Positions 9,157 through 37,179 of a DNA stretch of 64,000 nt are shown here, piece after piece. The DNA comes from an uncultured Candidatus Saccharibacteria bacterium (GTDB taxonomy: Bacteria > Patescibacteriota > Doudnabacteria > UBA920). The translations under genes and the position numbers were made by a program. Positions within the stretch are counted from its first letter, which is position 1, and every line of letters starts with the position of its first letter. The stretch spans positions 1,130,184 to 1,194,183 of the forward strand of contig CAYYWQ010000001.1 in the NCBI GenBank assembly GCA_964474825.1, given 5' to 3'. Under the pieces are notes generated by a model. It was not told where the DNA came from, did not search any database, and was given only the letters and a program-made list of their open reading frames with translations.

Positions 9157-9285
9157 TAATGAGCTGATATTTTTTACTTACCCTTTAATTTTAGCATAGG
9201 CAGGCTAATTCGTCGAGCCTGGCCTTTTTTACGACCATTGAATTTGAACAGTCTGTTTACTAATATGTATATGTAAGGAGGATCT

Positions 9286-9852: not shown

Positions 9853-9890
9853 GCAGTATGCGGAATTGTATTTTCCGCAACAGTGGTATT

Positions 9891-9928
9891 CCACTTCTTC
9901 GTTGAAAGAAGTGGGTTTTTGCTTTTTT
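9891..9928 (+). terminator. Rho-independent terminator
   Basis: ccacttc-ttcgttgaaa-gaagtgg hairpin followed by gtttttgctttttt. Confidence 0.55.
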
Positions 9929-10034
9929 ATGAGCCTTATTTATAACTAGTATTTCTATTTTCGTGGTTCTCGTACCCTAGGCTCTTGCCACTTCTTGACA
10001 TAGGTGGTAGAATTGTTACTATGTTTGTCTAAAA

Positions 10035-15726: not shown

Positions 15727-15727
15727 T

Positions 15728-16162: not shown

Positions 16163-16166
16163 TTTT

Positions 16167-17028: not shown

Positions 17029-17045
17029 ATTATTAATCATCAAAC

Positions 17046-18791: not shown

Positions 18792-19043
18792 ATTAGTTAC
18801 CGCCCGGTAACTAGTGTGTACAAAACCATCGTGTCTTGATTGATTTAAACCCAATCGAGATGCAATGTTTGCGTCAATTCAATTTGAGTTCAATGATATT
18901 CTGTGAATAACAGAAAAATGTTTTGATAATTTACATTTTACAAAAATAAATTATCGCCAAGGTTTGTCTTTTAGACAGATCGAACCACTGGATTTAATTC
19001 TCCGAAATTTAATTTGGATTACGGGTTAAGTTTAGTTTTAATA

Positions 19044-20503
<1,460 letters not shown>

Positions 20504-20770: not shown

Positions 20771-23014
20771 ATGCTACTTTACCAGATTGCACCTCTGGTT
20801 GATTTTTTGAGCGGGAACAAACCATCTCGCTCCGCTTTGGATTCCTTCCTTCAGGGAAAGCTGAAGGCTGGGGCACATCCATTTTTCCTGATGCAACTCA
20901 TGATCTTCGTGTCTGCGTCTTGCCCGGATCGGGCGGACTATCTGACAGATGCGGGTATTAGGGCTTTGAAACGAGTGAAGGACCGTTTGCAACAAGTTCC
21001 TGATGTTCCAGGAACCGAAGTCCAGGATCCGTTGCAACGCATATACGATGCGCCCGATGTCCCTCGTAAGACTGACGAGGGTATTATCCACGGCGTCGTA
21101 ATTGAGTCCTGCATGAACCTCATCCAGTCAAAAGTCGGCGGATCAATCCCAACTAGCGGATGGAAGAATTGGATGGGGACCGTTAGTTTAATTTGTAAGC
21201 ATCCTCAATCGACAGTTGCCGTTTTGGACAACATCGTCCAATTGACCTCTGGAATGGTAGAGCAGGATAGTCGTTTCCCAAAAGGAATGGCAGAGATGTT
21301 TGAGGCTATCCAACAAGAATTCTTCCAGAGGAGAGCTCAGCAGATTGGACTGAAGCGCTTGGTTGGGGAATTGGTTGAAACATGGAGCTTGGATTCAGCT
21401 TATCGATTCTTCGCTCTGCTCGTTCATCTTTTCCTTGCGGCAACCGATCCCGCTCAACCGTTGGGTGCGGATGTTCCTGGGACCACGATCTTGCGGACAA
21501 TTTTGGAAATCAAGGACAAGTCTTTGACTCAAGCAAAAAAGGAAATCCTTGACTATCCTTTGTTTTCCGCTTCCGAAGCCGACACTGACTATGACACTTC
21601 CATGATTGTGTCGAGGGCGGCACAGGTACTTGTGGAGATGCTCAAGGCAGAGTTGCCGGCTGTCGAAACCGTCCATGCCATCGCTAAACTTCTGAAAACG
21701 GTTAATCGTACCAACCGTGAGCAGTGGGTGGCTTATCTCGCGTTTCAAGCCAAACCGACTCTTGGCATCGACCCGCGCAGCGCCGACCTTTTAGAGAGTC
21801 TGCTGGGAGCAGAAGCTTGGAAGGCTTTGTGTGAACTTTCCAACCCAAAACATTGGGGTACTAACGTCCAGGTCACTACCGGTTTTAGACTTTATACCGG
21901 CTTGGATACCACATCGGAGGAGTACCGAGTTTTTTTTGGGAAGCTCCGCGCCATCGACTTCGATCATCACAACACCAGATTGGCTGAACTGTTGGACCGT
22001 CAGGTTCACGCCTCGGACCATACGCCTAAAGAAGCCAAGGACGCTTGCGACCGAGTTGTAAATCTCCTCGCCGGTGACACCGTTTTCAACTCCACCCATC
22101 TCCGCTTGGAATGGATGCGAGTCAAGCGCCGCGCTGACGAATTTCTCGGCGCTCACATTCCGCGCATTGATGTTGCCGTTCATCCGAAGTTCGGAGAGAG
22201 CGGTACCGCTTGCAAGTTCCGGATTTTCTTTACGGAATTGCCTGACGACCAGATTAGCGGCCTTATGGGACCGGAAGGGGAGATTGAGTTCAATAATATT
22301 GTTCTCCTTACTCTTTTCGGTCGAGACGGGCTGCGCGCTGCAGTGCTTGAATCCCTCGGCGCTATCCTGATTCCGCGTTATCTTGAACGGATACCAAGTC
22401 CGTTGCGCGGCGGCTTTGGCGGCAACTTTACTGGCGAGGTTTGGGCAGCGCGTCCTGCCTACCATACGCTGATACAAGTCCAGGAGAATCCCGATCCTGT
22501 CGGGCCTTCCTTCGGCAACCGTATTAACCCGGAAATCGCCAGGCTCGTGTTCCTATGGCTAACAGGCGAGGCCGCGGACTGTCCTTTCCGTCTGTATCGT
22601 AAGGTCAAGGAGAAACCCGAAGGGGAACAAACCGAGGACACTTACTACGTCGGTTGGGATTCGGCGAAACACTACCTTCTCTCCGAGAAGGTGACGCTAT
22701 CGCAGGTTTACCTGCGCACTGTTCGGGCACATACCAAGCCGGTCGGTGTCAAAGTCGAAAACGACGGTACGGTTGTGGTGCGGCAAGTCAGCGACAGGGC
22801 CAAACGCAACTACCGGCGATTTTTGTCCGACACCGGGCGACAGCTCGACATGACTCCAGTTCGCAAGACCTGCGAGTTACCCGGCGGTGTGCGGATTGTT
22901 CTCACTCTGGAGCGTACCTTCAACCAAGGGACTTTCAACTCCCTGGACGAAGTCTGGGTAATGATCCCGGACTTAACCTTGAAGGCCGACGCGAAACGTA
23001 GCTTTAAATTCTGA
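20771..23014 (+). CDS. Hypothetical 747-aa protein, GC-rich, no recognisable domains
   Basis: SD AAGGAGGG 8 nt before ATG. A 2.2-kb ORF without stops in 53-55% GC DNA. A palindrome (ctcttga-tttt-tcaagag) lies in its promoter region. Codon usage differs from the host. Confidence 0.55.
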   Translation: MLLYQIAPLVDFLSGNKPSRSALDSFLQGKLKAGAHPFFLMQLMIFVSASCPDRADYLTDAGIRALKRVKDRLQQVPDVPGTEVQDPLQRIYDAPDVPRKTDEGIIHGVVIESCMNLIQSKVGGSIPTSGWKNWMGTVSLICKHPQSTVAVLDNIVQLTSGMVEQDSRFPKGMAEMFEAIQQEFFQRRAQQIGLKRLVGELVETWSLDSAYRFFALLVHLFLAATDPAQPLGADVPGTTILRTILEIKDKSLTQAKKEILDYPLFSASEADTDYDTSMIVSRAAQVLVEMLKAELPAVETVHAIAKLLKTVNRTNREQWVAYLAFQAKPTLGIDPRSADLLESLLGAEAWKALCELSNPKHWGTNVQVTTGFRLYTGLDTTSEEYRVFFGKLRAIDFDHHNTRLAELLDRQVHASDHTPKEAKDACDRVVNLLAGDTVFNSTHLRLEWMRVKRRADEFLGAHIPRIDVAVHPKFGESGTACKFRIFFTELPDDQISGLMGPEGEIEFNNIVLLTLFGRDGLRAAVLESLGAILIPRYLERIPSPLRGGFGGNFTGEVWAARPAYHTLIQVQENPDPVGPSFGNRINPEIARLVFLWLTGEAADCPFRLYRKVKEKPEGEQTEDTYYVGWDSAKHYLLSEKVTLSQVYLRTVRAHTKPVGVKVENDGTVVVRQVSDRAKRNYRRFLSDTGRQLDMTPVRKTCELPGGVRIVLTLERTFNQGTFNSLDEVWVMIPDLTLKADAKRSFKF

Positions 23015-23186: not shown

Positions 23187-24395
23187 TTACATTTGGTCGG
23201 GAGCGGAGGGGTAGTTTTGAAGTTCTTGGTCGGTTACGATTTGTATGTTGGCAACGCTTAGGCCTAAGCGGTAAAATACAGTCATGGAAGGGATGCCGCT
23301 TTTTTGTCCGTTTATTATTAGGTAGACAGTTGGGTTAGTTGCAGTTTTTATTGCCGCTCCATTTTGTGCCATGACAGGCATGCTGCTGAGTAGGGAGGAG
23401 TCAAACTGGGTAGGGGAAATTGTTTGGACTTGCGACCACTGGTATCCGCGGTTTAAGAATGAGTCGGCGGAGTTAAATGGCGCGTACTGCCCGTTTGTTA
23501 CAAGGTAAATTGTGGGAGTGCCACTCACCTGGATTAATGAGCCATTGGCAAAAGATGAGTTTGGCATTTGGATGCTGCCGGAAGGTGAGGTGGAAGCCTG
23601 AGTAACAGTGAAAGGGATGGTGTAAGTATTTCCGTTTGAGGAAACCGTAATGTTGTAGGTTCCGGGAGTTATAACATTGGAGGTAGTAGGGCAGGTGCCC
23701 GCCGCGGTGGTGGTTGTAGCATTATTGGTTATTGTGGCGGGGTAGAGCGACGAAGAACATGGCTGCGTGTAAGTCGGTACTGTAAACTGTAAAGCACTGC
23801 CGTTTGAATTTCCGGTTGCGGAAATGTAAGATCCGTTACCAAACTGGATGCTGGGGTTTGGGTAAGTCGGAAAACCGGATCCGTTTAGGGTAACTACGCT
23901 GCCCGGTGCTCCGGAGTTGGAACTCAAGGAAAAATTCGATGGCGCGTTAGAGGTTGGGGTAAAGGAGGGGACAGTAATAATTTGTGAGCTTGTGCCGGTT
24001 GCCGCAAAAGCCTGGTTACCGTTTCCGGAAATATTTAATAAATATTGTCCAGAAGGAATTATCCTGCCGGTAACATCCGTGGCAACATTCCCATTGTAGT
24101 AGCCGTTGTTGGGAACACCTGCGGCAATTTGGTAAGGAGAAGTCCCGTAACAAGTTACTGTTGTGCCATTCATGGGGCACGAAGTTGAAGAGTACGGCAC
24201 TAAAGAAATATTTGCGTTGGTGGAGGTTGAAGAGTACGGCACTGTCCAGTTAATGCTTTGGCTGTTTCCGCTATACCAAGTTTGGCCGCCATTGGTGCTC
24301 GGGGCCGGGAGTATAATCGGGCCGGTATCGGCGGAAGCTTTTAGTGTAAAGCTTAAAGCCAAAACCGCGGCTACTAAAAGATATTTTATTTTCAT
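23187..24395 (-). CDS. Secreted Ser/Thr/Asn-rich surface protein (signal peptide, low complexity)
   Basis: N-terminal 'MKIKYLLVAAVLALSFTLKASA' signal peptide. The remaining ~380 aa are S/T/N/G-rich, with repeated 'SxNGN/Y' patterns. No catalytic motif. Confidence 0.55.
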   Translation of the reverse strand: MKIKYLLVAAVLALSFTLKASADTGPIILPAPSTNGGQTWYSGNSQSINWTVPYSSTSTNANISLVPYSSTSCPMNGTTVTCYGTSPYQIAAGVPNNGYYNGNVATDVTGRIIPSGQYLLNISGNGNQAFAATGTSSQIITVPSFTPTSNAPSNFSLSSNSGAPGSVVTLNGSGFPTYPNPSIQFGNGSYISATGNSNGSALQFTVPTYTQPCSSSLYPATITNNATTTTAAGTCPTTSNVITPGTYNITVSSNGNTYTIPFTVTQASTSPSGSIQMPNSSFANGSLIQVSGTPTIYLVTNGQYAPFNSADSFLNRGYQWSQVQTISPTQFDSSLLSSMPVMAQNGAAIKTATNPTVYLIINGQKSGIPSMTVFYRLGLSVANIQIVTDQELQNYPSAPDQM

Positions 24396-24755: not shown

Positions 24756-24784
24756 TTGACATAAGGGCTAAAATTTGCTATACT
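24756..24784 (+). promoter_or_regulatory. Near-consensus sigma70-type promoter (TTGACA-17-TATACT) upstream of the HTH/giant-protein operon
   Basis: TTGACA at 24756-61, a 17-nt spacer, TATACT at 24779-84, in a 530-bp AT-rich intergenic region. Confidence 0.45.
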
Positions 24785-24933: not shown

Positions 24934-25188
24934 ATGTCACCGCTGCAAAAACAGCTAATGGCGGCGTCGGACCAGCTTATTGGCGTAAGCCAAGCAGCGC
25001 GTCTGACTCCTTACTCGGCTGAATATTTAAGTTTACTTGCCCGCAAAGGCAAACTCAATGCTGTAAAAATTAACCGCGACTGGGTTACTACTCCCCAGGC
25101 GGTTTTAAGTTATGTAAAAAAACAGGAACGCAAACACTCAAAAATCTTAAAGGGGCTACAAGAAGCGGAAAGGACAATAGCTCCGTGA
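24934..25188 (+). CDS. Small helix-turn-helix DNA-binding protein (excisionase/MerR-type HTH_17-like)
   Basis: 'IGVSQAARLTPYSAEYLSLLARKGKLNAVKINRDWVTTPQAVLSYV' matches the excisionase-family HTH pattern (…G.LPA.KIGRRWRI…). Its TGA stop overlaps the GTG start of the giant ORF (GTGA). Confidence 0.6.
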   Translation: MSPLQKQLMAASDQLIGVSQAARLTPYSAEYLSLLARKGKLNAVKINRDWVTTPQAVLSYVKKQERKHSKILKGLQEAERTIAP

Positions 25189-28100
25189 AAATAAAACTTG
25201 AAAAAAATAAAATCCCCAGAACAGCAAGCCATTTCAAAAAACGGAAGGTTTTGGCTGGAAAAGCTAAAAACTCAGCGGACACTATGGAGCAAAAGATTAA
25301 ACAAATATTTAAAGTTCCGGGTGAGGTTTCCAAGAAAAAGATTGCCAAGCGGAAAATTATAACAAAAGACATACTGCCGGTTATAGACGTTGAGTCTCCG
25401 GAGTTTGCAAAGATGGTGGAAATTTTTCCGGCATCGCGTTTGAAGGACGCGGTTATTCAGGGCAGTAAAATTTTGCTTAAGCCAATTAAGGTTCCAACCT
25501 TTGCCAAAGCAGGAGCCTTGCTTTTGCTTTTAAGTTTTGGAGTTTACGGCGCGACTTTAAGCAAAAATTATTTGGAGCAGGGTTTGCTTAAACAGTTGGC
25601 CAGTAAGCAGCAGGCCGCTAAACCTGTTGCGCAAAATAAAATAAATCCAAAAATTAAAGATGGCGCAATAGCCAAGTTAAGCCGGGCTGTGCCAAGAGTT
25701 TTGGGGGAGTCCACAACCTCTCAATCAAATTCAAATCTGCCTGCGCAAATTAGAAATATTTTAGACCAGTATATTAAAGAAGGAAAAATTACAGGACAAA
25801 AAGGCGAGCCGGGGGAACCTGGACGAGCAGGAGGTTCTGTTGTTGGTTCAGCCCCTATAATTTATTATCCGCCAAATCCTTCCCAAAATTTTACCGGCGG
25901 TACTTATTTGGGTGTTACAAATCTTTCTTCCCAAAATCATACGGTTACCAATAATTTAACCGTAAGCGGCAATACGACCATTGCCGGCGCTTTGAATGTT
26001 TCAAATTTTTCCATAAATGGAATAACCGTGGCCGGAAGCGCGCAGTGGGCCGCGGACGGAAATAATATTTCTTACAGCCGAGGAAATGTGAGTGTTGGTA
26101 CGGCCAGTTCTTCCGGACAACTTACGGTGTTAGACAGCGCCGCGGGAAGTTACTACGGCAGCGAGCTGGTGAACAACGGTAATTTTTCCGGAAGCACTGA
26201 AGGCTGGACTTTAGGAGATTCCTGGGGTTATTCAACTAATGGCGTAGGTTTTGTTGCCCCGGTTTTTTCCGGTGCTGTAACTCGGTTTAGCGCTACAGAG
26301 TCGGCCGGAAGCGGGTATAGTGTGGGTGATGTTTTAACTTTACTCCCCGGCACGTCTGACCCTGCGGGCACAGGTGGGACAATTACTGTAACCGCTGTGG
26401 CAACAAACGGACAAATAGAAAGCATGAGGGGAATGGAAGCCATCGGTCGGGATTATAACGTAAATCAGATTGTAGATGTTGTGGGTGGCAGCGGCAGCGG
26501 CGCGCAACTTTTAATTACCAATATGGACGGTGAAGGAGGTGTAGAAGATTTTGTAATTCAAAATCCAGGCAGCGGTTATTCTTCGGGTTGTGATACTTAC
26601 GAAGTAGAGGGCACCAGCGGGCATGATTTCCGGCCAATACTTTGCGCAGGCAGCAGTGGCGGCGTGGTTAGTTTTACTTTGAGAAGCGGGGGAAGCGGGT
26701 ATTTGGAAGAAGAGCATAATACCAGCGGCGGCCATGGCAGCGGGTTTGTTGCCAACATTCGTGAGGTTTCCGCTTTGGGAACCATTGATTTAATCCCGGG
26801 GTTTGACGACGGCCATTACGGCACTGGCTACCATGTAGGTGACGTGTTAACTGTTTTGCCAGGCATAGGTGACAACGAAGCCAGCGGCGGCACGTTGACC
26901 GTAACCGAAGTTTCCAACGGAGAAATATTTGCCTCTTCCATTCAGAACGACGGCATTGGTTACCAAGTAGGCGACGTGCTTACTATTCCTGGTGGCACCG
27001 GCGGGGAATATACTGTTAGCGGAATAGACGAAGCCGGTGACGGACATATTGAAAGCATTGCCGGCATAAATGGCGCTGACCAAATGGGCAGCGGTTATGA
27101 GCGAGGGGACATTTTAAATGTAGCGGCCGGCACCGGTGGGCAAATTACTATTGACGCGGTTTTAGACGGCCAGGTTTTCTTTGCTTTTCCGGAAACAGTT
27201 GCCAATGCCGGTAGCGGCTACGCGGCAGATGACATAATTACAGTAAACGGTGGTGACGGACCTGTAGATTTAATTATTGTAGAAGTTGCAAACGACAGTT
27301 TAGGATTATGGGAACCCAATACCGCAGACGGCAACAACGGAGTTACTGCTTCGGGTACTGGTTATAGTGTAGGTGATATTGTAAATGTTGATGGCGGCAG
27401 TGGAGGACAATTATATGTACAAGTCGTAGACGAAAATGGTGGTGTGCAAAGCTATAGTGTTTATGAAAATGGAAGCGGCTACACGCTGGGATATAACGCC
27501 TATGCTACTTCTTATGGCGGCAGCGGCACGGGTTTTGTGGCAAATGTAGGTGTGCTCCCCGAAGGTGGGGTTCTGTTTGCGGAAAGTAACAGCAGTCATA
27601 ACGGCACCGGTTACACTTCCGGAAATTACAGCGTAACAGGCGGCAGCGGCAGTGGTTTCTCGCCAATGGTACTGGCTGGAGATATAAGTTTTGGTTTTTT
27701 CACAGAGGCGAATATTCATAATCCGGGCAGCGGGTATGTGCCGGGGGATATAATTACTATTTCCGGCGGCAGTGGCGCTAAAATAATCATAGCCGGTACC
27801 AATAGCAGTGGCGGCGTAACAGACTGGAATCTTTATAAACCTGGCACAGGCTATACCGCGGGCTACGCTACTCATTCTACAACGGGTGGGTCGGGAACAG
27901 GTTTTAGTATGGATTTAGGTTTTCCAGATTTTGGCGGAATTGTGGATTCTGAGCTTACAGAAGCCGGCAGCGGCTATGCTTATGGAGTCCACCTGGCTCT
28001 CGGCGGCCATGGCAGCGGTTATATGCCTTTGCTAAATACTGAAAGTGAGTTGGGCGAACTGCAGTATAATGACTATCAACCTGTAAACGGCGGCAGTGGG

Positions 28101-31100
28101 TACCAAGTTGGGGATTTAGTAGATGTTTCCGGCGGCACCGGCGGTAAAGTTTTTGTCACTAGTGTTTCCCCAAGTGGTGCTGTAAGGACTATCTACATTG
28201 CCAGAAACGGCACAGGGTATGCTTCTGACTGGGCTTATAGGTCAACAACCGGCGGTTCAGGTACGGGCTTGTTAATTAACGCTTTTGCCAGGAATTATCA
28301 CAACAATGCAATAACCGCAGGTTCTATTACTTCAGCTGGCAGTGGCTATACCAGCGGGACTAATTTAACTTTAAGCGGCGGCTCAGGCAGCGGCGCCACA
28401 ATAAATATTACTGCTACTGGTTTAGGCGGAGCAATAAGTGAGGTAGATGTTACAACCGGGGGCTCTAATTATATTGCCGGGAATCATGCAGTTTCCGGCG
28501 GCCACGGTGCCGGCGCAGTGCCATTCCTGGCAGTTGAATCTGCCGCAGGCGGTAACCTCGTCCAGGATTTATCAATAGAATCCGGCCGTCGTTACCGAGT
28601 AAAATTCACTCTTTCAGGCGAAGAAGAGGGTTGTGTAAGCGTATTTTTAGGGGGAGCGCTTGTCTCAGGTGACAGTTTCTGCGGCGACACAATTGCTGAG
28701 GTAATAGTTGAGGCAGTTAACAGTAACGGTTTAATTTTTTCTCCTTCTTCCGATTTTATTGGCAACATTAGTCATGTTTCTGTTACCCAGCTTAAGCCTG
28801 GCGCGACCGCCGTTTCTATTGTAAACAGTAACAGCGGAAAAGTTTTGGGAATTTCAACAGGAATTTCCGGTGACAACATTTTCTTTGGCCAGGAGTCCGG
28901 AGGGTTTAATACTGACGGTTTAGGTAATGCGACTTTGGGTTATCAAACTTTATACAACAACGCAGAGGGCAGCAACAATTTGGCTCTTGGCTACCAGGCT
29001 GGTTTTAGTAATGCTAACGGCAGCAATAATATTTTTATTGGCAACCAGGCCGGTTACTCGGAAACCGGTTCCAATAAATTATATATTTCAAATAGTTCCA
29101 GTTCGCCACTAATATATGGCGATCTCACTGCCGGTCTTTTAGGTATTAACACCATAAATCCCAATGCCACTTTGGACGTTTTGGGTAACCCGGCCCAAAC
29201 AGGAACCGGCACTATTTCCGACGACGGCGACGGGAATATTACAGGCACCGGCACAGCTTTTACCACAGAGCTGCATAGAGGCGACATTGTAAGAGACAGT
29301 AATGGTGAAGAGGCAATTGTTATATATATAGAGAGCGATACCGTTATGCAGGTATCTAAAAATCTAAATGGTGACACAGACCAAACCTTTACATATAAAC
29401 ATCCCGTACTAAATGTTACTAATTACGGTGCGGATTTCCCCGCGCTTTCTGTTTCCGCAAGAGGGGGTTTGTCCAGCCTTAATAGTTATTCCTATGCCGG
29501 AGGCGTGAGCAGTATTGCCTGGGGAGACGACAACCTGGCCAGCGGTGACTATGCCGCGGCTTTTGGCTCCACCAATGCGGCTGGTGGTAATTTTTCTTTT
29601 ACTGCTGGTCTTGGCAATATTGTAGAAGGAGATGCGTCCGCGGCTTTTGGGTGGGGTAACAGTGTTTTTGGTCCTAATTCTTTGGCTCTTGGCAAATTTA
29701 ACTCAGTCCATGGTAATACTTCCATGGTGTTTGGTGAGAATATGCAGGTGGACGGCAGTAATTCTGTGGGTATTAACTTAAACTACTATGAGTATCCAAA
29801 CCTTACCCGTGACAATACCATGGCTATTATGGGAGGCAATGTGGGGATTGGTACAACAACGCCCGATGTGGCTCTTTCTGTGCAGGGGGACATAAACCTC
29901 ACGGGCAACATTTACAAAAACGGCAGCCTGTTTGGTGGCGGCGACAGTGCCTGGTCAACAACCTTAGGCAGTGACCTATATTTTGATGCCGGGAATGTTG
30001 GAATTGGCACGAGCAATCCAGCGGCTAATTTACATGTTTATGGGGAAGGCTCCGGTGAATTTACAGGAGGTTATGAGTCAGTTTTGGCTATTGAGTCCGC
30101 GGATGCTAACCCTTGGGCGCTTTCTATAAGAAGGCAAGATATAGGCGCTAGTTCCGACATTTCCTTATACAACAACGGTGACGAAACCACTGGCGACTGG
30201 CGCTTTGCCGTTGGCGACGGTGCCGATTCTTATTACACCCCGGTAGACATAAATAAGTATGGGCTAACTATTGGTGAGCAAGGTTTGGTTGGCGGCAATG
30301 CTTTAGCTATTTCTCCGGACGTTGGTGGCGGGATGCTTTATGGAACTATATCGGCTCCTGTGCCGTTTGCCTGGTCTTTGGGTTATACAAGCGATGTTAC
30401 GGTAACTTCAACCCCTGTTATAACTTGGAATGGTTTAGGGAAGGTTGGTATTGGTACTACTACTCCGGCTGCCCTGTTTGATATTCGTGGTTCAGATGGT
30501 TCTATTGGTAGCGGCCTTATTGCTGACGACGGTGACGGAAATATTACGGGAACTGATACAGCTTTTCTTGCTGAATTACAAGTAGGCGACTCTATTGAAT
30601 TCTATGGGGCTAACGCTCCCGGAATAATTACGGAAATAATTGATGATACTCATATGATAGTAAGCCATGTCCATACAGACCCGTTTATAGACTCAGGATT
30701 TAATTATCAAAGCCCTTTGCTGAGTGTAAGTAATGCTTATGAGGGCCTGCTTAATGTATATGGTTTAACCAACAGCGCAAGCTTAGGTGTAGGTAGTTTA
30801 GTTTCCGGTGGTTACTCTTATGCCCTGGGTGCATATAATACAGTTACTTCTCCATATACCGAAGGACCGGGCGGAGTTGCTATTGGCGGCGGTAATACAA
30901 TTTCTTCAGTGCTCGCTTCCGCAATTGGCGTGAACAACACAGTTACTGGAGACAGCTCAAATGCCTATGGTCTTTATAATACAGTTTCCGGACAAGATGC
31001 TTTTGCGATTGGCCGTTATTTGAACGCTACAAGCACGGGCGGATTTGTTTTAGGGTCAGGATATTCTTACGACCATTTATTAACCAACACCATAGACAGC

Positions 31101-33866
31101 TCTTTAATGATTGGCTTTAACAGCGACATTGCCACTTTGTTTGTAGGTCCCGGAAATGGCACCAGCACAGTGGGCAATGTTGGTATTGGCACTACCACTC
31201 CGGGTTCTGCTTTAACTGTTGCTGGAGATATTAATTTTACAGGGAATTTGCTTTACAATGGTTCACCAATAACTTTTAATATTTCCAGCGGTCTTACATT
31301 AACCGGTTCGGATTTTGTAGATTCTGTGGACATTAATAGTGAAGTTATTGAGCCAATCCATGTTTCCTTTAGCAGCGACGGAACCCATATGTTTGTTATT
31401 GACGACGATACCGGCAATATATTCCAATACGACTTAGGCTTAGCGTGGGACATAACGACTGCCAGTTACAGCAGTAATTCTTTTGACCCAGGTTCAGAAT
31501 TTGCCTTCGGTGTGTGGTATGCCTCTTGGAAAACAGACGGAACCAAATTGTATGTAGAGGGGAACGCTGATGGCGACACAAAAGTAGTTGAATATTATCT
31601 TTCTTCCCCATGGGATATTTCTACGGCTTCTTCCACCGGAAATTCTATAGATATTTCAACTGACATTAGTAACGGAGGGGATTGGGTTTGGAACAGCGAC
31701 GGCAGTGAGGCTTTTGTAACTGCATGGGAGGGAGGGCTTATACATAGGTATTCACTACTAACTCCTTGGGACCTTACTACAGCAACGTATACAGGCCCGG
31801 TGCTTGAAGTCAGTATCGGCAGCGGTTTTCCAATTGGCATGAGTTTTTTTAACAGCGGCTTAAATATGGGAGTAGTTATGTTTAATCCTGGAAGCGGTAG
31901 TATAGTTTTGTATAGTTATACGCTCGATTCCGCCTACGATGTTTCCAGCGCTTCCCCGGACGGTTCCAGTTTTGACCTTACCGTTTATGGTAATATTACT
32001 GTTCCTTTCTTTAGCCCAGAAGGCGACCAGTTCTATTTTCCTGTTGAGGGTTACTCTGCTGTAAATGGTGGAGACGGAAGTATTATTCAATTTGAACTAG
32101 GCGCTAGCAGTAGTGGATTGCAATGGACAACTTCAGGCAGTGATATTTATTTTTCAAGAGGCAATGTTGGTATAGGCACCCACGAAGCGTCCGCCCTGTT
32201 AGACGTGCAGGGGTCGGGTATGCTGCCGGGGACAGGCACAATTAGCGACGACGGTTATGGTATTATTACCGGCATAGGTACCAGGTTTGAGGAAGAATTA
32301 AGCGAAGGGGATACCATTTTAATCGGCAGTTTTCCTTTTGGTCTTCCTGCTACAATCTATGAAATTTCTGACAATGAACATATGAGAGTCCAGCACGACT
32401 TAAGTGAGACCTATGTAGACACAACTTTTGCTTATCAAAAACCCCTTGTAGTTATGGGAGAGCCAAGCGGTCCGGAAACTATTTTTAGCGCCAGCGGTTA
32501 TACGGCCAGCCTTTCTTTGGGTTACCAAAATACAGTTAGCGGTTATTTTGGTACCGCAATTGGAACGGGAAATACGGTTATGTCTGCTGTTGGGCCCGAC
32601 GGCCTTATGGGAACGGCGGCCTTAGCTCTGGGCAGTGCAAATACTGTAAGGGGTCAGGGGAGTATTGCCATAGGAAGCTATTTAACAGCCGGCGCCGACG
32701 GGGCAATAGTTATAGGTAGTGGGGATTTTGAAGACGAAGGTTCTCTGACAAATAACATAGAAAACTCATTAATGGTTGGCTTTAACAGCGATGTACCAAC
32801 ATTGTTTGTTGGCGCCGGTTCCGGCTTAGGAACTTTTGGTAAGGTTGGTATTGGCACCACCACTCCTGACTTTTTAATTACTTTAAGCGGGGGGGCGTAC
32901 AGTGATGGTTCTTCCTGGTCCAATGCTTCGGACAAAAACTTAAAAGAAAATTTTGCCACTGTCACCCCGGCAGACATTTTGCAAAAAATTGTAAGTCTGC
33001 CTATTAGCCAGTGGAATTATAAAACGGATACAGCCACAACTACCCACATGGGCCCAACGGCCCAGGATTTTTACGCTGCTTTTGGCCTAGGTGGTAAAGG
33101 AGGCGCCAAATCTATTTCTACCATTGATGAGCCGGCAATTGCTTTGCTTGGCATCCAAGCACTAAACCAAAAAATTATTGACTTGCAAGGCGCGCTTGTA
33201 AATAACGCCAGCTCTACAATTGCTTTAACTGTTACCCAAGCCGTTGTGTACGAAAAAACTTTAACAGTTTTGGGACAGGTTTACTTTAGCGGAGACAATG
33301 TCGGACAGGCGCAAATTTTGGCCGGTGAAAATTCCGTGCGAATAAATTTCAGCCAGGCTTATTTGTATCAGCCGATTATTACTATTTCACCAATAGACTT
33401 TGACGGCAAATGGAAATTAAAAAACGTAGATTCCCAAGGATTCACAATTAAGCTGACTGAAAAGCAAAACTTAGACGTCACTTTTAATTGGCACTCTTTT
33501 GCATCTGAGCAGGCTAAGCTTACTGTTAGCAGCGGCACAACTTCGCCTATTACTTTGGTTGTCGTTAGCGGGGAAGTTTTGGGAGAAGCTATCTCCACTC
33601 CAAATACAGGCCCTGTAATCAGCAACAGCCCTCAGCAACCAGCTGAAGCTCCTTCGCCAACTCCGGAAGTTTTGGGGGAGTTTACAACATCCCCTGAGGC
33701 TGTTGTTGATCAACCTGCTTTCCCGTCCCCGGACCCTACGCCGGTAGTTGACGCACCAGCAGATGTGCCGGATTCGCCCAGCCCTAAAGCCCCGGACGAA
33801 GCCCCAACAGTTACGGCTCCTGAACCACCGCCAGCGTCCGCTGCGCCAAGCGAGCCGACTCCTTAA
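25185..33866 (+). CDS. Giant (2893 aa) membrane-anchored surface protein with a phage-tail-fibre-like intramolecular-chaperone (S74-type) domain; putative adhesin
   Basis: Basic N-terminus then TM 'AGALLLLLSFGVYGA'. Collagen-like 'GQKGEPGEPGRAGG' (about 25791-25838). About 20 Gly-rich 'GSGY..GD..T..GG.GG…V' repeats (about 26290-28560). Three modules marked by 'VGIGTTTP' and 'ISDDGDGNITGTGT.F..EL..GD' with YadA/Hep_Hag-like heptads and 'SLMIGFNSD.[AP]TLFVG'. 'WDIT[TS]AS' beta-propeller-like blades (about 31310-32100). 'SDKNLKENF…ILQKIVSLPISQWNYKTD…GPTAQDFYAAFG…IDEPAIALLGIQALNQKIIDLQ' chaperone domain (about 32928-33190). PT-rich tail. A start at the downstream ATG (25284) is possible. Confidence 0.85.
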   Translation: MKIKLEKNKIPRTASHFKKRKVLAGKAKNSADTMEQKIKQIFKVPGEVSKKKIAKRKIITKDILPVIDVESPEFAKMVEIFPASRLKDAVIQGSKILLKPIKVPTFAKAGALLLLLSFGVYGATLSKNYLEQGLLKQLASKQQAAKPVAQNKINPKIKDGAIAKLSRAVPRVLGESTTSQSNSNLPAQIRNILDQYIKEGKITGQKGEPGEPGRAGGSVVGSAPIIYYPPNPSQNFTGGTYLGVTNLSSQNHTVTNNLTVSGNTTIAGALNVSNFSINGITVAGSAQWAADGNNISYSRGNVSVGTASSSGQLTVLDSAAGSYYGSELVNNGNFSGSTEGWTLGDSWGYSTNGVGFVAPVFSGAVTRFSATESAGSGYSVGDVLTLLPGTSDPAGTGGTITVTAVATNGQIESMRGMEAIGRDYNVNQIVDVVGGSGSGAQLLITNMDGEGGVEDFVIQNPGSGYSSGCDTYEVEGTSGHDFRPILCAGSSGGVVSFTLRSGGSGYLEEEHNTSGGHGSGFVANIREVSALGTIDLIPGFDDGHYGTGYHVGDVLTVLPGIGDNEASGGTLTVTEVSNGEIFASSIQNDGIGYQVGDVLTIPGGTGGEYTVSGIDEAGDGHIESIAGINGADQMGSGYERGDILNVAAGTGGQITIDAVLDGQVFFAFPETVANAGSGYAADDIITVNGGDGPVDLIIVEVANDSLGLWEPNTADGNNGVTASGTGYSVGDIVNVDGGSGGQLYVQVVDENGGVQSYSVYENGSGYTLGYNAYATSYGGSGTGFVANVGVLPEGGVLFAESNSSHNGTGYTSGNYSVTGGSGSGFSPMVLAGDISFGFFTEANIHNPGSGYVPGDIITISGGSGAKIIIAGTNSSGGVTDWNLYKPGTGYTAGYATHSTTGGSGTGFSMDLGFPDFGGIVDSELTEAGSGYAYGVHLALGGHGSGYMPLLNTESELGELQYNDYQPVNGGSGYQVGDLVDVSGGTGGKVFVTSVSPSGAVRTIYIARNGTGYASDWAYRSTTGGSGTGLLINAFARNYHNNAITAGSITSAGSGYTSGTNLTLSGGSGSGATINITATGLGGAISEVDVTTGGSNYIAGNHAVSGGHGAGAVPFLAVESAAGGNLVQDLSIESGRRYRVKFTLSGEEEGCVSVFLGGALVSGDSFCGDTIAEVIVEAVNSNGLIFSPSSDFIGNISHVSVTQLKPGATAVSIVNSNSGKVLGISTGISGDNIFFGQESGGFNTDGLGNATLGYQTLYNNAEGSNNLALGYQAGFSNANGSNNIFIGNQAGYSETGSNKLYISNSSSSPLIYGDLTAGLLGINTINPNATLDVLGNPAQTGTGTISDDGDGNITGTGTAFTTELHRGDIVRDSNGEEAIVIYIESDTVMQVSKNLNGDTDQTFTYKHPVLNVTNYGADFPALSVSARGGLSSLNSYSYAGGVSSIAWGDDNLASGDYAAAFGSTNAAGGNFSFTAGLGNIVEGDASAAFGWGNSVFGPNSLALGKFNSVHGNTSMVFGENMQVDGSNSVGINLNYYEYPNLTRDNTMAIMGGNVGIGTTTPDVALSVQGDINLTGNIYKNGSLFGGGDSAWSTTLGSDLYFDAGNVGIGTSNPAANLHVYGEGSGEFTGGYESVLAIESADANPWALSIRRQDIGASSDISLYNNGDETTGDWRFAVGDGADSYYTPVDINKYGLTIGEQGLVGGNALAISPDVGGGMLYGTISAPVPFAWSLGYTSDVTVTSTPVITWNGLGKVGIGTTTPAALFDIRGSDGSIGSGLIADDGDGNITGTDTAFLAELQVGDSIEFYGANAPGIITEIIDDTHMIVSHVHTDPFIDSGFNYQSPLLSVSNAYEGLLNVYGLTNSASLGVGSLVSGGYSYALGAYNTVTSPYTEGPGGVAIGGGNTISSVLASAIGVNNTVTGDSSNAYGLYNTVSGQDAFAIGRYLNATSTGGFVLGSGYSYDHLLTNTIDSSLMIGFNSDIATLFVGPGNGTSTVGNVGIGTTTPGSALTVAGDINFTGNLLYNGSPITFNISSGLTLTGSDFVDSVDINSEVIEPIHVSFSSDGTHMFVIDDDTGNIFQYDLGLAWDITTASYSSNSFDPGSEFAFGVWYASWKTDGTKLYVEGNADGDTKVVEYYLSSPWDISTASSTGNSIDISTDISNGGDWVWNSDGSEAFVTAWEGGLIHRYSLLTPWDLTTATYTGPVLEVSIGSGFPIGMSFFNSGLNMGVVMFNPGSGSIVLYSYTLDSAYDVSSASPDGSSFDLTVYGNITVPFFSPEGDQFYFPVEGYSAVNGGDGSIIQFELGASSSGLQWTTSGSDIYFSRGNVGIGTHEASALLDVQGSGMLPGTGTISDDGYGIITGIGTRFEEELSEGDTILIGSFPFGLPATIYEISDNEHMRVQHDLSETYVDTTFAYQKPLVVMGEPSGPETIFSASGYTASLSLGYQNTVSGYFGTAIGTGNTVMSAVGPDGLMGTAALALGSANTVRGQGSIAIGSYLTAGADGAIVIGSGDFEDEGSLTNNIENSLMVGFNSDVPTLFVGAGSGLGTFGKVGIGTTTPDFLITLSGGAYSDGSSWSNASDKNLKENFATVTPADILQKIVSLPISQWNYKTDTATTTHMGPTAQDFYAAFGLGGKGGAKSISTIDEPAIALLGIQALNQKIIDLQGALVNNASSTIALTVTQAVVYEKTLTVLGQVYFSGDNVGQAQILAGENSVRINFSQAYLYQPIITISPIDFDGKWKLKNVDSQGFTIKLTEKQNLDVTFNWHSFASEQAKLTVSSGTTSPITLVVVSGEVLGEAISTPNTGPVISNSPQQPAEAPSPTPEVLGEFTTSPEAVVDQPAFPSPDPTPVVDAPADVPDSPSPKAPDEAPTVTAPEPPPASAAPSEPTP

Positions 33867-33962
33867 AAACCTTTCCAAACAAAATGGAAAGGTTTTTAAA
33901 TTTGACTTAGGAAATTGAATAAATGATAATTACAAATATAGCAGTACGCGGGTATAAAAATT

Positions 33963-34673
33963 TTGAAAATAATGAACGAAGTTAGCCAAAACCTAAAATT
34001 AAGCGTGGTCCTGCCTTGCCGGGACGAAGAAGCGGCTGTGGGGGAGTGCATTTTAAAAATAAAACAGGTGCTGGAGCAGAATAATATAGATGGGGAAATA
34101 ATAGTATCAGATTCCTCGGCCGACAGTTCAGCCAAAATAGCTCAAAATCTTGGTGCGGTTTTAATTCAGCACGGACGGGAAGGTTATGGTACTGCCTGCC
34201 TGGAAGGGTTTAAAGCGGCAAAAGGAAAATATATATTTTTGGCAGACGCTGACGGAAGTTATGATTTTGCGGAAATACCTAATTTTTTGGCACACCTGGA
34301 ATTGGGTAATGATTTTGTAATCGGCAACAGGTTTAAAGGAAAAATTGCCCCCGGGGCAATGCCTTTGCTTCACCGCTTTGTGGGAAACCCACTGTTTCCG
34401 TTTATGTTTAGAATATTTTTCCGCGCAAAAATTCAGGACGTGCACTGCGGAATGAGGGCCGTGGCTAAAGAGTCGCTCGCTCCGCTGGCGCTTAATTCCA
34501 CTGGTATGGAATTTGCGTCGGAAATGCTAATTAAGGCCGTGCAAAATAAACTTAAAATACACGAGCTATCTATAAATTATTACAAAAGGAAAGGCGTTTC
34601 AAAACTGCGTCCTTTTGCGGATGGCTTTAGGCACCTTAGGTTAATAGTGCTCGCAGGAGCTTTTAAAAAATGA
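33963..34673 (+). CDS. Glycosyltransferase family 2 (Dpm1/ArnC-like polyprenol-phosphate sugar transferase type)
   Basis: 'LSVVLPCRDEE', 'IIVSDSSAD', 'YIFLADADGSYD' (DxD) motifs. 236 aa. Confidence 0.75.
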   Translation: MKIMNEVSQNLKLSVVLPCRDEEAAVGECILKIKQVLEQNNIDGEIIVSDSSADSSAKIAQNLGAVLIQHGREGYGTACLEGFKAAKGKYIFLADADGSYDFAEIPNFLAHLELGNDFVIGNRFKGKIAPGAMPLLHRFVGNPLFPFMFRIFFRAKIQDVHCGMRAVAKESLAPLALNSTGMEFASEMLIKAVQNKLKIHELSINYYKRKGVSKLRPFADGFRHLRLIVLAGAFKK

Positions 34674-35770
34674 AGATAGCGGTTTTCCATAATTTTATGG
34701 ACAACATAGGCGGCGCGGAAATTGTGGCGCTGGCTTTAACTAAAGGCCTTTCCGCGGACCTTTATACCACCAACATAGACCGCGACAAAATAGAAAAAAT
34801 GGGTTACGGAAACATTTTGCCCAATATATATTCCATTGGCACAGTTCCAAAAAACGCTCCGTTTAGGCAGCAGCTGACTTTTTGGAAATTTAGTCAGCTT
34901 AATTTAAAAAAGAAATACGACTTCTACATTATTGCCGGGGACTGGGCCATGTCCGGCTGTGTTAATAACAAGCCAAATTTATGGTATGCCCACTCTCCCT
35001 TAAATGAGCTTTGGGCCTTTAAAGACTATGTAAGAAACCAGGTTATAGAAGGTTGGAAAAAACCTTTTTTTGATGTATGGGTTTGGTTTAACCGAAGGCT
35101 TAATAAAAAATATGTAAATCATGCCCAAATAATTATTTGCAATTCCAAGAATACGCAACAAAGAGTAAAAAATATTTATAACCGTAAAGCTGGGGTTTTG
35201 AATCCTCCGGTAGATACGGCAAAATATTTTAGCAATCCCCACAAAGGTTATTGGCTTTCAGTTAATCGGCTAACAAAGGCCAAAAGAATAGAACTGCAAA
35301 TGCATGCCTTTGCCCAAATACCGGAAGAGAATTTAATTATAGTGGGCAGTTACGAAAAAGGCTCTAAGCCTTTTGAAAAATACAAAAAATTTATTGGAGA
35401 AATAAAACCTCCAAATGTTAAAATTATAAACTGGGCAACAGACGAGGAATTAAAAGAGCTGTATGCCAACTGCATTGGCCTAATAACTACTTCCATAGAC
35501 GAGGATTTTGGCATGGCGCCGGTTGAAGCCATGGCCGCGGGCAAGCCGGTAATAGCGCCAAACGAAGGCGGCTACAAAGAAACACTGGTCGATGATGTTA
35601 CTGGAAAACTTATTTCAGACATCAGCTTTGAGAAATTGATTAAATCAATCCGGGAAGTCGGTAAAAATCCGGAAAGTTACAAGCAGGCATGTTTACTGCA
35701 AGCCGCAAAGTTTGACACGCAAATTTTTATAAATAAAATTCAGCAGCTATTAGAAAAGCCCTATGCCTAA
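34670..35770 (+). CDS. Glycosyltransferase (GT-B fold, GT4-like)
   Basis: C-terminal Glycos_transf_1-like region: 'EDFGMAPVEAMAAGKPVIAPNEGGYKETL' (EX7E-type). ATGA start/stop overlap with the upstream gene. Confidence 0.7.
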   Translation: MKIAVFHNFMDNIGGAEIVALALTKGLSADLYTTNIDRDKIEKMGYGNILPNIYSIGTVPKNAPFRQQLTFWKFSQLNLKKKYDFYIIAGDWAMSGCVNNKPNLWYAHSPLNELWAFKDYVRNQVIEGWKKPFFDVWVWFNRRLNKKYVNHAQIIICNSKNTQQRVKNIYNRKAGVLNPPVDTAKYFSNPHKGYWLSVNRLTKAKRIELQMHAFAQIPEENLIIVGSYEKGSKPFEKYKKFIGEIKPPNVKIINWATDEELKELYANCIGLITTSIDEDFGMAPVEAMAAGKPVIAPNEGGYKETLVDDVTGKLISDISFEKLIKSIREVGKNPESYKQACLLQAAKFDTQIFINKIQQLLEKPYA

Positions 35771-36605
35771 AGCATTGTTCATTACCGGAAATAAGCGCTC
35801 CGGCACTTCCCAGCTCGTTAGGCTCCTAAATTTACACCCGGAAATATTTGTTTCGCATGAGTCAGACGCTGTGCTCATAATTTCGCGTTTTTTAAAGGGA
35901 GAACCTTTCTTAAGCCATGCCGCAGATTCTTCTGTTGGAATGGAATATACTTTAAAAATTTGTGGCCAACTTTTGAGCAAACAAAAAAGCGCTGCAGAAA
36001 ACTTTTTTGCAATTCAAAAAAAGCTTATGGAAACGGGCAGCCCGTGGCTTCCATCAGAACCTAAAAAAGACCCGCAATGGGTGGGGGACAAAAAGCCTTT
36101 TCAGTATTCGGATCCCTCTATAACAGATTTTATCCGTTCCAGTTTTCCGCAGGCTGTTTTTATTCATTTAGTCAGGCATCCTTTTGCCGTAGCCCAAAGC
36201 GCGCAAAAATTTAACAAAACCGTTAATGGGGATTTTTGGAGAGGTTTAAGTTTAGAGGAAATGGTGGAAGAGTGGGCTAAAAATGAAAATAATGTTTTAG
36301 AGCTAAAAAAATCCGGTTGGGCCAAAGTGATGGACGTGCGCTATGAAGATTTATGTAAGGAAACAGACAAAGAACTTACGCGAATTTTTAATTTTTTGGG
36401 GCTCAAAGTAAACGCAAATATTTTAAAAACAGCAGCCAAAACCACTCGTTACACACTAAAAAAAATACCAATAATTCCTTGCAGTCAGAACACGCTTTCT
36501 ATTATGGGCCAGTATGGATACACACCGGGGCAGGCAGAAAAGGGAAGGGCGCAAATTTTACTTTCCAATTTATATTGGAAAGTGCACAAAAAAATATATG
36601 CATAA
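35763..36605 (+). CDS. Sulfotransferase-family protein (PAPS-dependent)
   Basis: N-terminal 5'-PSB-like P-loop 'FITGNKRSGTSQLVRLLNLHPEIFVSHE'. Mid-region 'FIHLVRHPFAVAQS' (3'-PB-like). About 280 aa, typical of bacterial sulfotransferases. Confidence 0.65.
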   Translation: MPKALFITGNKRSGTSQLVRLLNLHPEIFVSHESDAVLIISRFLKGEPFLSHAADSSVGMEYTLKICGQLLSKQKSAAENFFAIQKKLMETGSPWLPSEPKKDPQWVGDKKPFQYSDPSITDFIRSSFPQAVFIHLVRHPFAVAQSAQKFNKTVNGDFWRGLSLEEMVEEWAKNENNVLELKKSGWAKVMDVRYEDLCKETDKELTRIFNFLGLKVNANILKTAAKTTRYTLKKIPIIPCSQNTLSIMGQYGYTPGQAEKGRAQILLSNLYWKVHKKIYA

Positions 36606-37179
36606 AAAAGTTTTTCAGGAGTTTGAAAAAATCTGTTCTAAAAGAAGTTTAAGAGGTTCGGTTCTGGAGGTTGGCGCCAAACCGGATTTTTCCAGCCTTT
36701 TGAATATGGAAGCGCTAAAGGCCATGGACGAAAAAATAGGCATTAACCTGGAAGGGGCATCTGAGTATAAAGATTTTAAAATACTTAAAGGCAATGCCAA
36801 TAATATGGATTGTTTTGCCAGCAATAGTTTTGATTTAGTTTTATGCAACGCGGTTTTTGAACACGACAAATTTTTTTGGAAGACACTTTCGGAAATAAAA
36901 AGGGTTGCCAAACCTGGCGCGCTTATTGTTATTGGCGCTCCGGGTTTTGGTATTACTGCCGCCGAAGGCCGCTTACGCGCCATCTTAAATCACATTCCCT
37001 TCTTGCCTAGTTTTTTTACCAGTTCTACTTTAACACTTCTGGAACACAACTTCCCGGGCGATTATTACCGTTTTAACAAACAGGCTTTTGAGCAAGTTTT
37101 TTTTGAAGGAATGAAAGAAGTCAGTATTAAAACTATAATGTCCCCCCCAAGAATAATAGGCGCAGGCATAAAATCATGA
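36598..37179 (+). CDS. Class I SAM-dependent methyltransferase. Start moved to ATG 36598, overlapping the upstream stop, rather than the ORF-track start at 36514
   Basis: Motif I 'VLEVGAKPD', 'DLVLCNAVFEH', 'KPGALIVIGAP' (Methyltransf_11/23-like). Confidence 0.65.
   Translation: MHKKVFQEFEKICSKRSLRGSVLEVGAKPDFSSLLNMEALKAMDEKIGINLEGASEYKDFKILKGNANNMDCFASNSFDLVLCNAVFEHDKFFWKTLSEIKRVAKPGALIVIGAPGFGITAAEGRLRAILNHIPFLPSFFTSSTLTLLEHNFPGDYYRFNKQAFEQVFFEGMKEVSIKTIMSPPRIIGAGIKS

Follow-up and report, generated by a model that had tools for sequence, protein, structure and literature searches.

Overview of the locus

The window analysed here is a stretch of 64,000 nucleotides, and the subject of this work is a single very large gene within it that encodes a 2893-amino-acid (aa) fibre protein, together with the small helix-turn-helix (HTH) gene that directly precedes it. 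The open reading frame (ORF) of the fibre runs from 25185 to 33866 on the plus strand, begins with GTG, and encodes a protein of 296 kDa with a pI of 4.2. The initial annotation of this DNA had described one uninterrupted ORF at these positions, and NCBI holds a protein identical to it, encoded on a contig of 1,211,450 bp. The fibre protein is composed of a cytoplasmic segment, a membrane anchor, a Gly-rich stalk, three head-like modules, a putative beta-propeller, a Peptidase_S74 domain, a lectin-like domain, and a Pro-rich tail (Table 1). It is probably an anchored, trimeric adhesive fibre that processes itself.

Table 1. Features of the HTH-fibre locus, in order of nucleotide position in the window; residue numbers are those of the fibre protein.
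Feature	Nucleotides	Strand	Basis or remark
Promoter-like TTGACA-17-TATACT, 11/12, TG-extended, ~150 nt 5' of the HTH ORF	24756..24784	+	Consensus scan only
HTH_17-type (excisionase/MerR-like) protein, 84 aa	24934..25188	+	Homology to N-termini of fused relatives
Shine-Dalgarno-like GGAAAGGA, 10 nt 5' of GTG	25167..25174	+	Read from sequence
Lys-rich cytoplasmic segment, aa 1-102	25185..25490	+	27 K+R in aa 1-105
Transmembrane signal-anchor helix, aa ~103-125, AKAGALLLLLSFGVYGATL	25491..25559	+	Hydropathy
First VLG motif copy, RVLGESTT, aa 171-178, directly outside the membrane	25698..25718	+	
Collagen-like run GQKGEPGEPGRAGGS, aa 204-218	25794..25838	+	5 G-X-Y triplets
Conserved membrane-proximal domain, aa 219-369	25839..26291	+	'IIYYPPNPSQNFTGG...TNLSSQN'
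~19 Gly-rich repeats of ~41 aa, aa 370-1140	26292..28604	+	GSGY alternating with GGSGSG
Beta-rich domain without assignment, aa 1141-1272	28605..29000	+	
Module 1, aa 1273-1600	29001..29984	+	LGINT capping motif, insert domain, N-x-A-x-G repeats, VGIGTTTP
Spacer that holds another VGIGT motif, aa 1601-1751	29985..30437	+	
Module 2, aa 1752-2044	30438..31316	+	Self-similarity, module profile
Putative YVTN/TolB-like beta-propeller, aa 2045-2290	31317..32054	+	4 full and 1 partial blade
Module 3, aa 2289-2581	32049..32927	+	Closes in capping-loop motif KVGIGTTTPDFL (aa 2552-2563)
Peptidase_S74 intramolecular chaperone / self-cleaving domain, aa 2582-~2690	32928..33254	+	Pfam PF13884
Predicted H-type-lectin-like beta-sandwich, aa ~2700-2795	33282..33569	+	C-terminal to the cleavage site
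Pro/Ala/Ser/Thr-rich acidic tail, aa 2801-2893	33585..33863	+	28% Pro
Second VLG motif copy, EVLGEFTT, aa 2828-2835	33666-33689	+	Inside the low-complexity tail
15-bp hairpin overlapping the fibre stop codon, terminator-like	33863..33899	+	Consensus scan only
Promoter-like site ahead of the glycosyltransferase cluster	33902-33930	+	Consensus scan only

The S74 domain and the cassette that follows it

A Peptidase_S74 domain had been predicted at roughly aa 2580-2680. Pfam places it on aa 2582-2633 with an E-value of 2.2e-10 and 41.1 bits against a cut-off of 22. The catalytic Ser-Lys dyad of S74 proteins lies in the motif SDxxxK (PMC10769870). This motif is intact in the fibre protein as S2582-D-K-N-L-K2587, with the Ser codon at nt 32928-32930 and the Lys codon at nt 32943-32945. 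Ser2582, Asp2583, and Lys2587 are invariant in 17/17 aligned cassettes that are 48-63% identical, and the Peptidase_S74 profile is also matched by all 17 of these relatives. When the S74 region is compared with the PDB together with its VGI.T..P stalk motif, the top sequence match is the ICA domain of MyRF (7dc3). Foldseek recovered 7dc3 only at E 0.11 with an AlphaFold2 (AF2) model of the cassette.

S74 does not form the C-terminal end of the window protein but is followed by a further domain and a tail. The 44 proteins that carry the full cassette of capping loop, S74 domain, lectin-like domain, and tail have 241-391 aa (median, 303) between the Ser and the C-terminus, compared with a median of 121 in 193 S74-only relatives. 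It is therefore the non-terminal placement of S74 that marks out the cassette family. The tail had been recognised as Pro-rich in the initial annotation, and a tail of 44-184 aa, rich in Pro, Ser, Thr, and Ala, is found in 44/44 cassette-bearing relatives.

The region between S74 and the tail had been described as Ig-like. This assignment is replaced here, because the region is predicted by modelling to be an H-type-lectin-like beta-sandwich. The AF2 monomer model of the cassette, built with 17 relatives, is confident only at aa 2704-2774 (predicted local distance difference test [pLDDT], 73-88), and this part has the six-stranded beta-sandwich fold of Helix pomatia agglutinin and discoidin. 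The C-terminal receptor-binding domains of phage tailspikes and pyocin fibres have the same fold, as do GalNAc/Gal lectins. The Pfam H_lectin family is weakly matched in 7/17 relatives at E <=0.1, with a best value of 0.009.

A second explanation of the same fibre starts from this fold. The lectin-like domain would be the working tip, which binds the receptor like the end of phage tailspikes and R-pyocin fibres, and S74 would mainly trimerise the chain, either without cleaving it or with the cleaved trimer staying attached. H-type lectins are themselves trimeric, and the lectin-like domain and S74 are kept as one cassette in 44 clusters; both points, along with the receptor-binding fold, favour such a tip. 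However, neither the Ser nor the Lys of the dyad varies among the 17 aligned cassettes, which argues that catalysis has been retained, even if attachment of the cleaved trimer remains compatible with this. Moreover, the chaperone part departs after cleavage in every S74 protein that has been studied, namely endosialidase, T5 pb1, Bd3182, and MyRF (PMC10769870). A lectin-tipped fibre is considered unlikely.

The tail also carries the second copy of a short motif that forms a hydrophobic island, [EQR]-V-L-G-[TAED]-[STF]-T, whose first copy lies N-terminally, just beyond the membrane anchor. The motif is found in the tail of 12/44 relatives and after the anchor helix in several. The relatives with the motif at one or both positions include P0008, P0009, P0011, P0013, P0014, P0026, P0031, P0034, P0037, P0156, and P0157, among others. 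It may be a processing, sorting, or glycosylation signal, and to our knowledge it matches no known sorting motif.

Head-like modules and the putative beta-propeller

The central part of the fibre contains three homologous modules of ~280-330 aa with 31-41% mutual identity in a self-comparison. The initial annotation had recognised the threefold repetition but had given the modules a length of roughly 600 aa; their spacing is 435-574 aa. A 'DDG.G.ITG' motif occurs once per module, at aa 1346, 1781, and 2355. The motif 'SLM[IV]GFNSD', which had been ascribed to every module, is present in two of them (aa 1973 and 2528) and absent from the third. Each module also has an insert domain of ~80 aa with the pattern 'GTGTISDDGDGNITGTGTAF..EL..GD'. 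The sole match of this insert, a distal tail protein of a phage, is marginal (E 0.027).

The modules had been described as YadA-head-like, and profile searches agree with this description. Module 1 matches the heads of trimeric autotransporter adhesins (TAAs) in the PDB at E 4e-5 to 3e-4. A profile built from the modules (A4) matches seven TAA head structures at E 4e-18 to 3e-3, including 7o23 (BpaC; 4e-18), 9u93 (CbpF; 1e-13), 9gh4 (1e-9), 3ntn (UspA1; 4e-9), 3s6l (Hep_Hag; 2.5e-8), and 1p9h (YadA; 3e-3). Through 'VGIGTTTP', the same profile matches the Bdellovibrio MAT fibres 8ond (Bd2133; 4.6e-7) and 8ojn (6e-4). The PHROG tail fibre family phrog_1980 matches aa 2442-2633, across module 3 and the start of S74, at E 4e-8. 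The sequence V-G-[G/N]-pi-x-x-P-x-x-x-L is the capping loop of S74-type beta-helices in MAT fibres and MyRF (PMC10769870). Seven capping motifs of the form [VL]GI[GN]T are found in the fibre protein, one of which (VGIGTTTPDFL) stands directly before the S74 Ser.

Between modules 2 and 3 lies the block that had been noted for its 'WDITTAS' blade-like repeats. The blades are ~53 aa long and are marked by WD[IL][ST]TA at aa 2088, 2143, and 2195 and by YDVSSA at aa 2251. The best match of the blade profile (A3) is 1L0Q, a Methanosarcina surface-layer YVTN propeller, at E 1e-11 over six stretches, and TolB propellers follow at ~2e-6. The block is conserved in the orthologous protein P0008 (E 3e-56). 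The sequence points to a YVTN/TolB-like beta-propeller, with closure of the ring being putative.

The N-terminal region

A basic N-terminus with one transmembrane helix had been proposed, and both elements are present. The window of aa 103-121 is the most hydrophobic 19-residue window of the entire protein. An equivalent helix occurs at the same position in 28/44 relatives, where it is more hydrophobic than in the window protein. Relatives with an HTH domain fused to the fibre have it before the hydrophobic helix, which in turn precedes the fibre; the topology is therefore N-in, and the helix serves as a signal anchor and is not a signal peptide that is cleaved off.

Outside the membrane, the previously reported collagen-like run is present, but it consists of only five G-X-Y triplets and by itself appears too short to be called a stable triple helix. 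Of the 28 N-complete relatives, 16 have a run of 3-8 triplets at this position behind the anchor helix, which makes the run a feature of the family and not a product of chance. The segment of aa 126-370, which includes the conserved membrane-proximal domain, matches 11 relatives at E 6e-20 to 7e-6. The membrane-proximal domain is common only to Patescibacterial-type relatives, and a Pfam scan found no family on it.

The Gly-rich repeats, earlier counted at about 20, are presumed to form the stalk of the fibre. They appear to be all-beta with an unassigned fold, and a PDB search with a profile of the stalk unit found no relative. The stalk is ~50% identical and collinear in P0008. The beta-rich domain at the distal end of the stalk had no match in the PDB or Pfam, and it is common to ORFs in Bacteroidota loci.

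The HTH_17 partner gene

The 84-aa HTH ORF is annotated by NCBI as a separate protein. Its TGA stop codon overlaps the GTG start codon of the fibre (GTGA). The N-termini of 8/44 cassette proteins are homologous to this ORF (E 5e-24 to 1e-8), and the HTH_17 domain was found in 5/5 members, with a best E-value of 1.4e-9. Together with locus L002, in which the HTH is also fused to the fibre, there are at least nine fused relatives.

A 4-nt overlap of stop and start codons (ATGA/GTGA) is found in four independent genomes: the window, L004 (Saccharibacteria), L007 (Patescibacteria), and L008 (Terriglobia). The last three also have a purine-rich site, GGAAAGG/GGAAGGAGG, at the position of the Shine-Dalgarno-like site in the window. 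A frameshift or sequencing error was considered as the cause of the split between HTH and fibre and was rejected on the strength of this recurrence. The junction also has no slippery sequence and no homopolymer. The split is thus a conserved, translationally coupled gene pair. In L007, a second copy of the HTH ORF (12565-12801; 62% identical to that of the window) lies downstream of the fibre gene and stops with TAA, and no large ORF that follows overlaps it, so the HTH protein also exists uncoupled. The promoter-like sites and the hairpin listed in Table 1 are putative, since consensus matches say nothing of function.

Distribution of the family

A word-indexed homology search with the full-length protein gave 5 matches, because Gly-rich words dominated the candidates. 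The family came to light in an exhaustive phmmer search with aa 2289-2800, which returned 16,004 representatives whose S74 region is related. The full cassette is present in 44 of these representatives, with 45-62% identity in the lectin-like domain, which amounts to at least 44 clusters at 50% identity. Most of the clusters belong to Saccharibacteria, Daviesbacteria, and other Patescibacteria. Among the GTDB representatives scanned, a set that does not contain the window genome, the metagenome-assembled genomes (MAGs) with the full cassette are three from Saccharibacteria, one from Daviesbacteria, one from the 'Patescibacteria group', and two from Acidobacteriota, whereas S74-only matches are scattered across many phyla.

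P0008 (3355 aa) is a collinear ortholog that shares the stalk and propeller with the window protein and is 59-70% identical to it in the cassette; the central modules differ. As judged from the sequences, such an exchange of modules between orthologs is typical of receptor-binding proteins and would be expected under diversifying pressure.

Another homolog, P0002 (2276 aa; GCA_038230075.1), has a signal-peptide-like start and a post-S74 region unlike that of the window protein. Beside it, at 8087-9999 of locus L001, genes for a 492-aa protein that matches PF26696 ('PTL_trimer') and for a 143-aa membrane protein stand where the HTH gene would be.

Chromosomal setting and the question of a phage origin

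The window contains genes for 16S rRNA, UvrA, UvrC, RNase J, and a class I aminoacyl-tRNA synthetase of the Trp/Tyr type. UvrA is 86% identical to its best named relatives, which come from MAGs of the 'Patescibacteria group' and of Candidatus Doudnabacteria. Type IV pilus genes form a block at 13427-17546 on the plus strand, with a T2SSE ATPase (E 7e-116), a T2SSF platform protein, and four small ORFs of 134-176 aa that could be pilins. The earlier description of a reduced-genome organism rich in pilus genes is in keeping with this content. The fibre locus is a chromosomal locus of a small-genome, probably host-dependent Patescibacterium and not a prophage.

The S74 domain, the PHROG tail-fibre match, and the name that NCBI gives to the relatives, 'tail fiber domain-containing protein', would all fit a phage tail-fibre gene in a prophage or phage remnant. 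Several results speak against this origin. The protein has an N-terminal membrane anchor, and no phage structural, packaging, or integrase genes are found among the neighbours of the fibre gene in the window. Searches by tblastn of 50,697 phage genomes with the C-terminal 512 aa or with the stalk gave no match. In IMG/VR, 25 viral loci match the S74 part alone, and the post-S74 cassette is present in 0/25 of them. The HTH-fibre pair is, in addition, conserved in cellular genomes. A phage origin of the gene is regarded as extremely unlikely.

The glycan cluster behind the fibre gene

Directly 3' of the fibre gene, at 33963-40959, is a cluster that encodes a GtrB-like glycosyltransferase of family GT2, a GT4 enzyme, a sulfotransferase, a methyltransferase, a second GT4 enzyme, and a further glycosyltransferase. 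The sulfotransferase matches Sulfotransfer_3 at E 3.5e-24. The minus strand carries the ATPase of an ABC transporter and an adjoining 264-aa ORF. In an organism of this kind, a surface glycan that is sulfated would be out of the ordinary. A functional link between the fibre and the cluster is not claimed, because a hairpin and a separate promoter-like site lie between them and P0002 has no such neighbours.

The cluster bears on a further explanation, according to which the protein is a structural component of the envelope, S-layer-like or a wall-spanning scaffold, that is possibly glycosylated by the downstream genes and is not an adhesin. The presence of glycosyltransferase, sulfotransferase, and ABC-exporter genes directly 3' would suit this role, as would the very large, acidic, Ser/Thr/Gly-rich character of the protein and the top match of the blade profile to an archaeal surface-layer propeller. 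On the other hand, trimeric fibres that end in S74 and have YadA-like heads are known as adhesins and receptor binders rather than lattice formers, and the swapping of central modules between orthologs fits a variable binding function. The apparent own promoter of the glycan cluster after the hairpin, and its absence beside P0002, also argue against a shared role. A structural role in the envelope is rated as rather improbable.

Proposed assembly and maturation of the fibre

The interpretation favoured here, with moderate confidence, is that the protein is an N-anchored, trimeric mosaic adhesive fibre that is folded from its C-terminal chaperone and self-cleaved at Ser2582. The two-gene unit would produce a cytoplasmic HTH_17 protein and then, by coupled translation, a type-II (N-in) membrane-anchored surface fibre, of which an ectodomain of ~2770 aa would be exported. 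The S74 domain, which would emerge last, would join three chains in register and template trimer folding of the preceding beta-helical and YadA-head-like modules from the C-terminus towards the N-terminus. The Ser2582-Lys2587 dyad would then cut between Ala2581 and Ser2582. This cut would free a 32.7-kDa fragment composed of S74, the H-type-lectin-like domain, and the Pro/Ser/Thr tail, and it would leave a 263-kDa anchored chain with module 3 as its distal tip. From base to tip, the mature fibre may be composed of the collagen-like base, the stalk of ~19 Gly-rich repeats, and the three head-like modules, with the beta-propeller placed laterally. Bd2133 measures about 150 Å for 370 residues (PMC10769870), and a rough scaling from this value gives a fibre length of ~100 nm. 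The fibre would project from the cell and bind glycans or proteins on the host-cell surface, probably through its head modules and through the propellers, of which each trimer would have three. In Bdellovibrio, S74-type MAT fibres are found on the cell surface and cleave themselves at the Ser homologous to Ser2582 (Caulton 2024; PMC10769870). The sequences themselves show the identity and order of the domains, the conserved dyad and cassette, the N-in anchor, the HTH coupling, and the chromosomal setting; trimer formation, cleavage, surface exposure, and host binding are drawn from endosialidase, T5 pb1, Bd3182, and MyRF as homologous systems.

Several points weigh against this interpretation. 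Trimerisation is taken over from homologous systems, and host binding is proposed purely by analogy. On the single sequence, two Pfam families remain below their cut-offs: YadA_head, with 17.7 bits against 25, and H_lectin, with 15.3 bits against 24. The hydropathy of the anchor helix in the window protein is modest (1.54). The AF2 monomer models are poor, with an overall pLDDT of 53 for the cassette and of 34 for the stalk, the latter from an 8-row alignment; the S74 part of the cassette reaches only 33-68, with helices at the expected places. The S74 domain is not terminal, with 312 aa (32.7 kDa) from Ser2582 to the C-terminus, and it is odd that cleavage would discard a domain of the receptor-binding lectin type, which is unexpected in an adhesin.

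The earlier reading is partly supported. Its structural part held up on the matches to trimeric fibre folds and on the S74 match at the indicated segment, the absence of which had been named as a refutation. Its picture of a released chaperone and a mature fibre that remains is incomplete, since cleavage would also remove the lectin-like domain and the Pro/Ser/Thr tail, and since the fibre gene is coupled to, or fused with, a cytoplasmic HTH_17 domain. A regulatory role of this HTH partner can be imagined in which the HTH-anchor-fibre unit acts as a contact sensor. Tension or host binding would be relayed through the anchor to HTH_17, in a ToxR-like manner or by regulated release, and the cleaved trimer of S74, lectin-like domain, and tail would serve as a secreted or wall-bound probe for host glycans. 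This proposal is very doubtful; if it were true, host attachment would switch transcription directly.

Comparison with known fibre systems

The closest parallel to the anchored fibre proposed here is the S74 subgroup of the MAT (mosaic adhesive trimer) fibres of Bdellovibrio bacteriovorus, for example Bd3182. Both are non-phage surface fibres, and Bdellovibrio lives on other bacteria. Both are beta-helical mosaics with V-G-[G/N]-pi-x-x-P-x-x-x-L capping loops, as reflected in the profile matches to 8ond and 8ojn, and both have S74 with the SDxxxK dyad in the C-terminal region. MATs are ~1000 aa long and have a signal peptide and a conserved, beta-rich N-terminal domain of ~130 aa, and the S74 subgroup closes with the chaperone (PMC10769870). 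In contrast, the 2893-aa window protein begins with a Lys-rich cytoplasmic segment of 102 aa and then the anchor helix. The N-terminal arrangement therefore differs, although the MAT N-terminal domain is known here by description only. The Gly-repeat stalk, the propeller, the ~200 residues after S74, and the paired HTH gene also set the window protein apart.

Phage tail fibres and tailspikes, such as the K1F endosialidase and T5 pb1, share S74, the Ser-Lys dyad, and a stalk motif of the triple-beta-helix type. The window fibre differs from them in its membrane anchor, its non-terminal chaperone, its non-phage setting, and the absence of a match in phage genomes. TAAs (YadA, UspA1, BpaC, EibD, and CbpF) share the N-x-A-x-G left-handed beta-roll repeats of the head type. 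They were rejected as a home for this protein because it has no C-terminal YadA_anchor barrel; Pfam gave no YadA_anchor match on the fibre protein at E-values up to 10. The window fibre is anchored instead by an N-terminal inner-membrane helix. Relatives of this Patescibacterium are generally held to have no outer membrane.

MyRF is the other known case in which S74 is followed by more protein. It also resembles the fused relatives in having a DNA-binding domain, a transmembrane helix, and S74 on one chain. The order in MyRF is DNA-binding domain, S74, and transmembrane helix, and cleavage frees a DNA-binding trimer. The fused relatives have the order HTH, transmembrane helix, fibre, and S74, and the window encodes its HTH as a protein of its own. 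Where a transmembrane helix separates the HTH from S74, the cut cannot release the HTH, and the protein is thus not a MyRF-type factor. Finally, the lectin-like domain has marginal sequence similarity to H-type lectins (Helix pomatia agglutinin, discoidins, and SLL-2), and, unlike these and unlike the knobs of R-pyocin fibres and phage tailspikes, it stands behind a self-cleavage site.

Other features of the window

Upstream of the HTH-fibre pair, a divergent ORF at 23187-24395 on the minus strand encodes a 402-aa protein that is rich in Ser, Thr, and Asn. It has a signal-peptide-like N-terminus, looks secreted, and has no family match. A second very large protein (1664 aa; 51426-56420, plus strand) combines a CBM60 module of the Ca-dependent, xylan-binding type (E 1.8e-14) with a glycosyl-hydrolase-like GHL15 domain (E 8e-11); it too is a candidate for contacts with the surface of a host or a substrate.

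The 16S rRNA gene is complete (19037-20501), with no 23S gene behind it and no large-subunit rRNA match in the window. Genes for tRNA-Ile(GAT) and tRNA-Ala(TGC), a pair typical of rRNA spacers, lie 38 kb from the 16S gene on the minus strand (58953-59027 and 58135-58208, respectively). At the site of primer 515F, the 16S gene has GCAGCAGCGG in place of GCCGCGG, so that common primers would mismatch there. What we take to be the Saccharibacteria primer sites are absent from this 16S gene. Directly behind it is a putative coding ORF of 747 aa (20771-23014, plus strand) with no Pfam or PHROG family. This stretch is the most GC-rich of the window, at 49-51% compared with ~42%.

Significance

How ultrasmall Patescibacteria recognise their hosts and stay attached to them is poorly known, apart from type IV pili and a few adhesins (PMC10633639, PMC12206443). 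In the literature consulted, no description was found of an S74-lectin-tail fibre family in Patescibacteria, of a lectin-type domain behind an S74 cleavage site, of an S74 fibre with an N-terminal membrane anchor, of one with a long Gly-repeat stalk, or of an S74 fibre with a conserved cytoplasmic DNA-binding link in the form of an HTH partner or fusion. The fibre locus gives definition to a family with at least 44 clusters, whose giant fibres, anchored in the membrane, are built on the principles of phage receptor binding and Bdellovibrio prey recognition. With their exchangeable modules, the members of this family are concrete candidates for determinants of host range.

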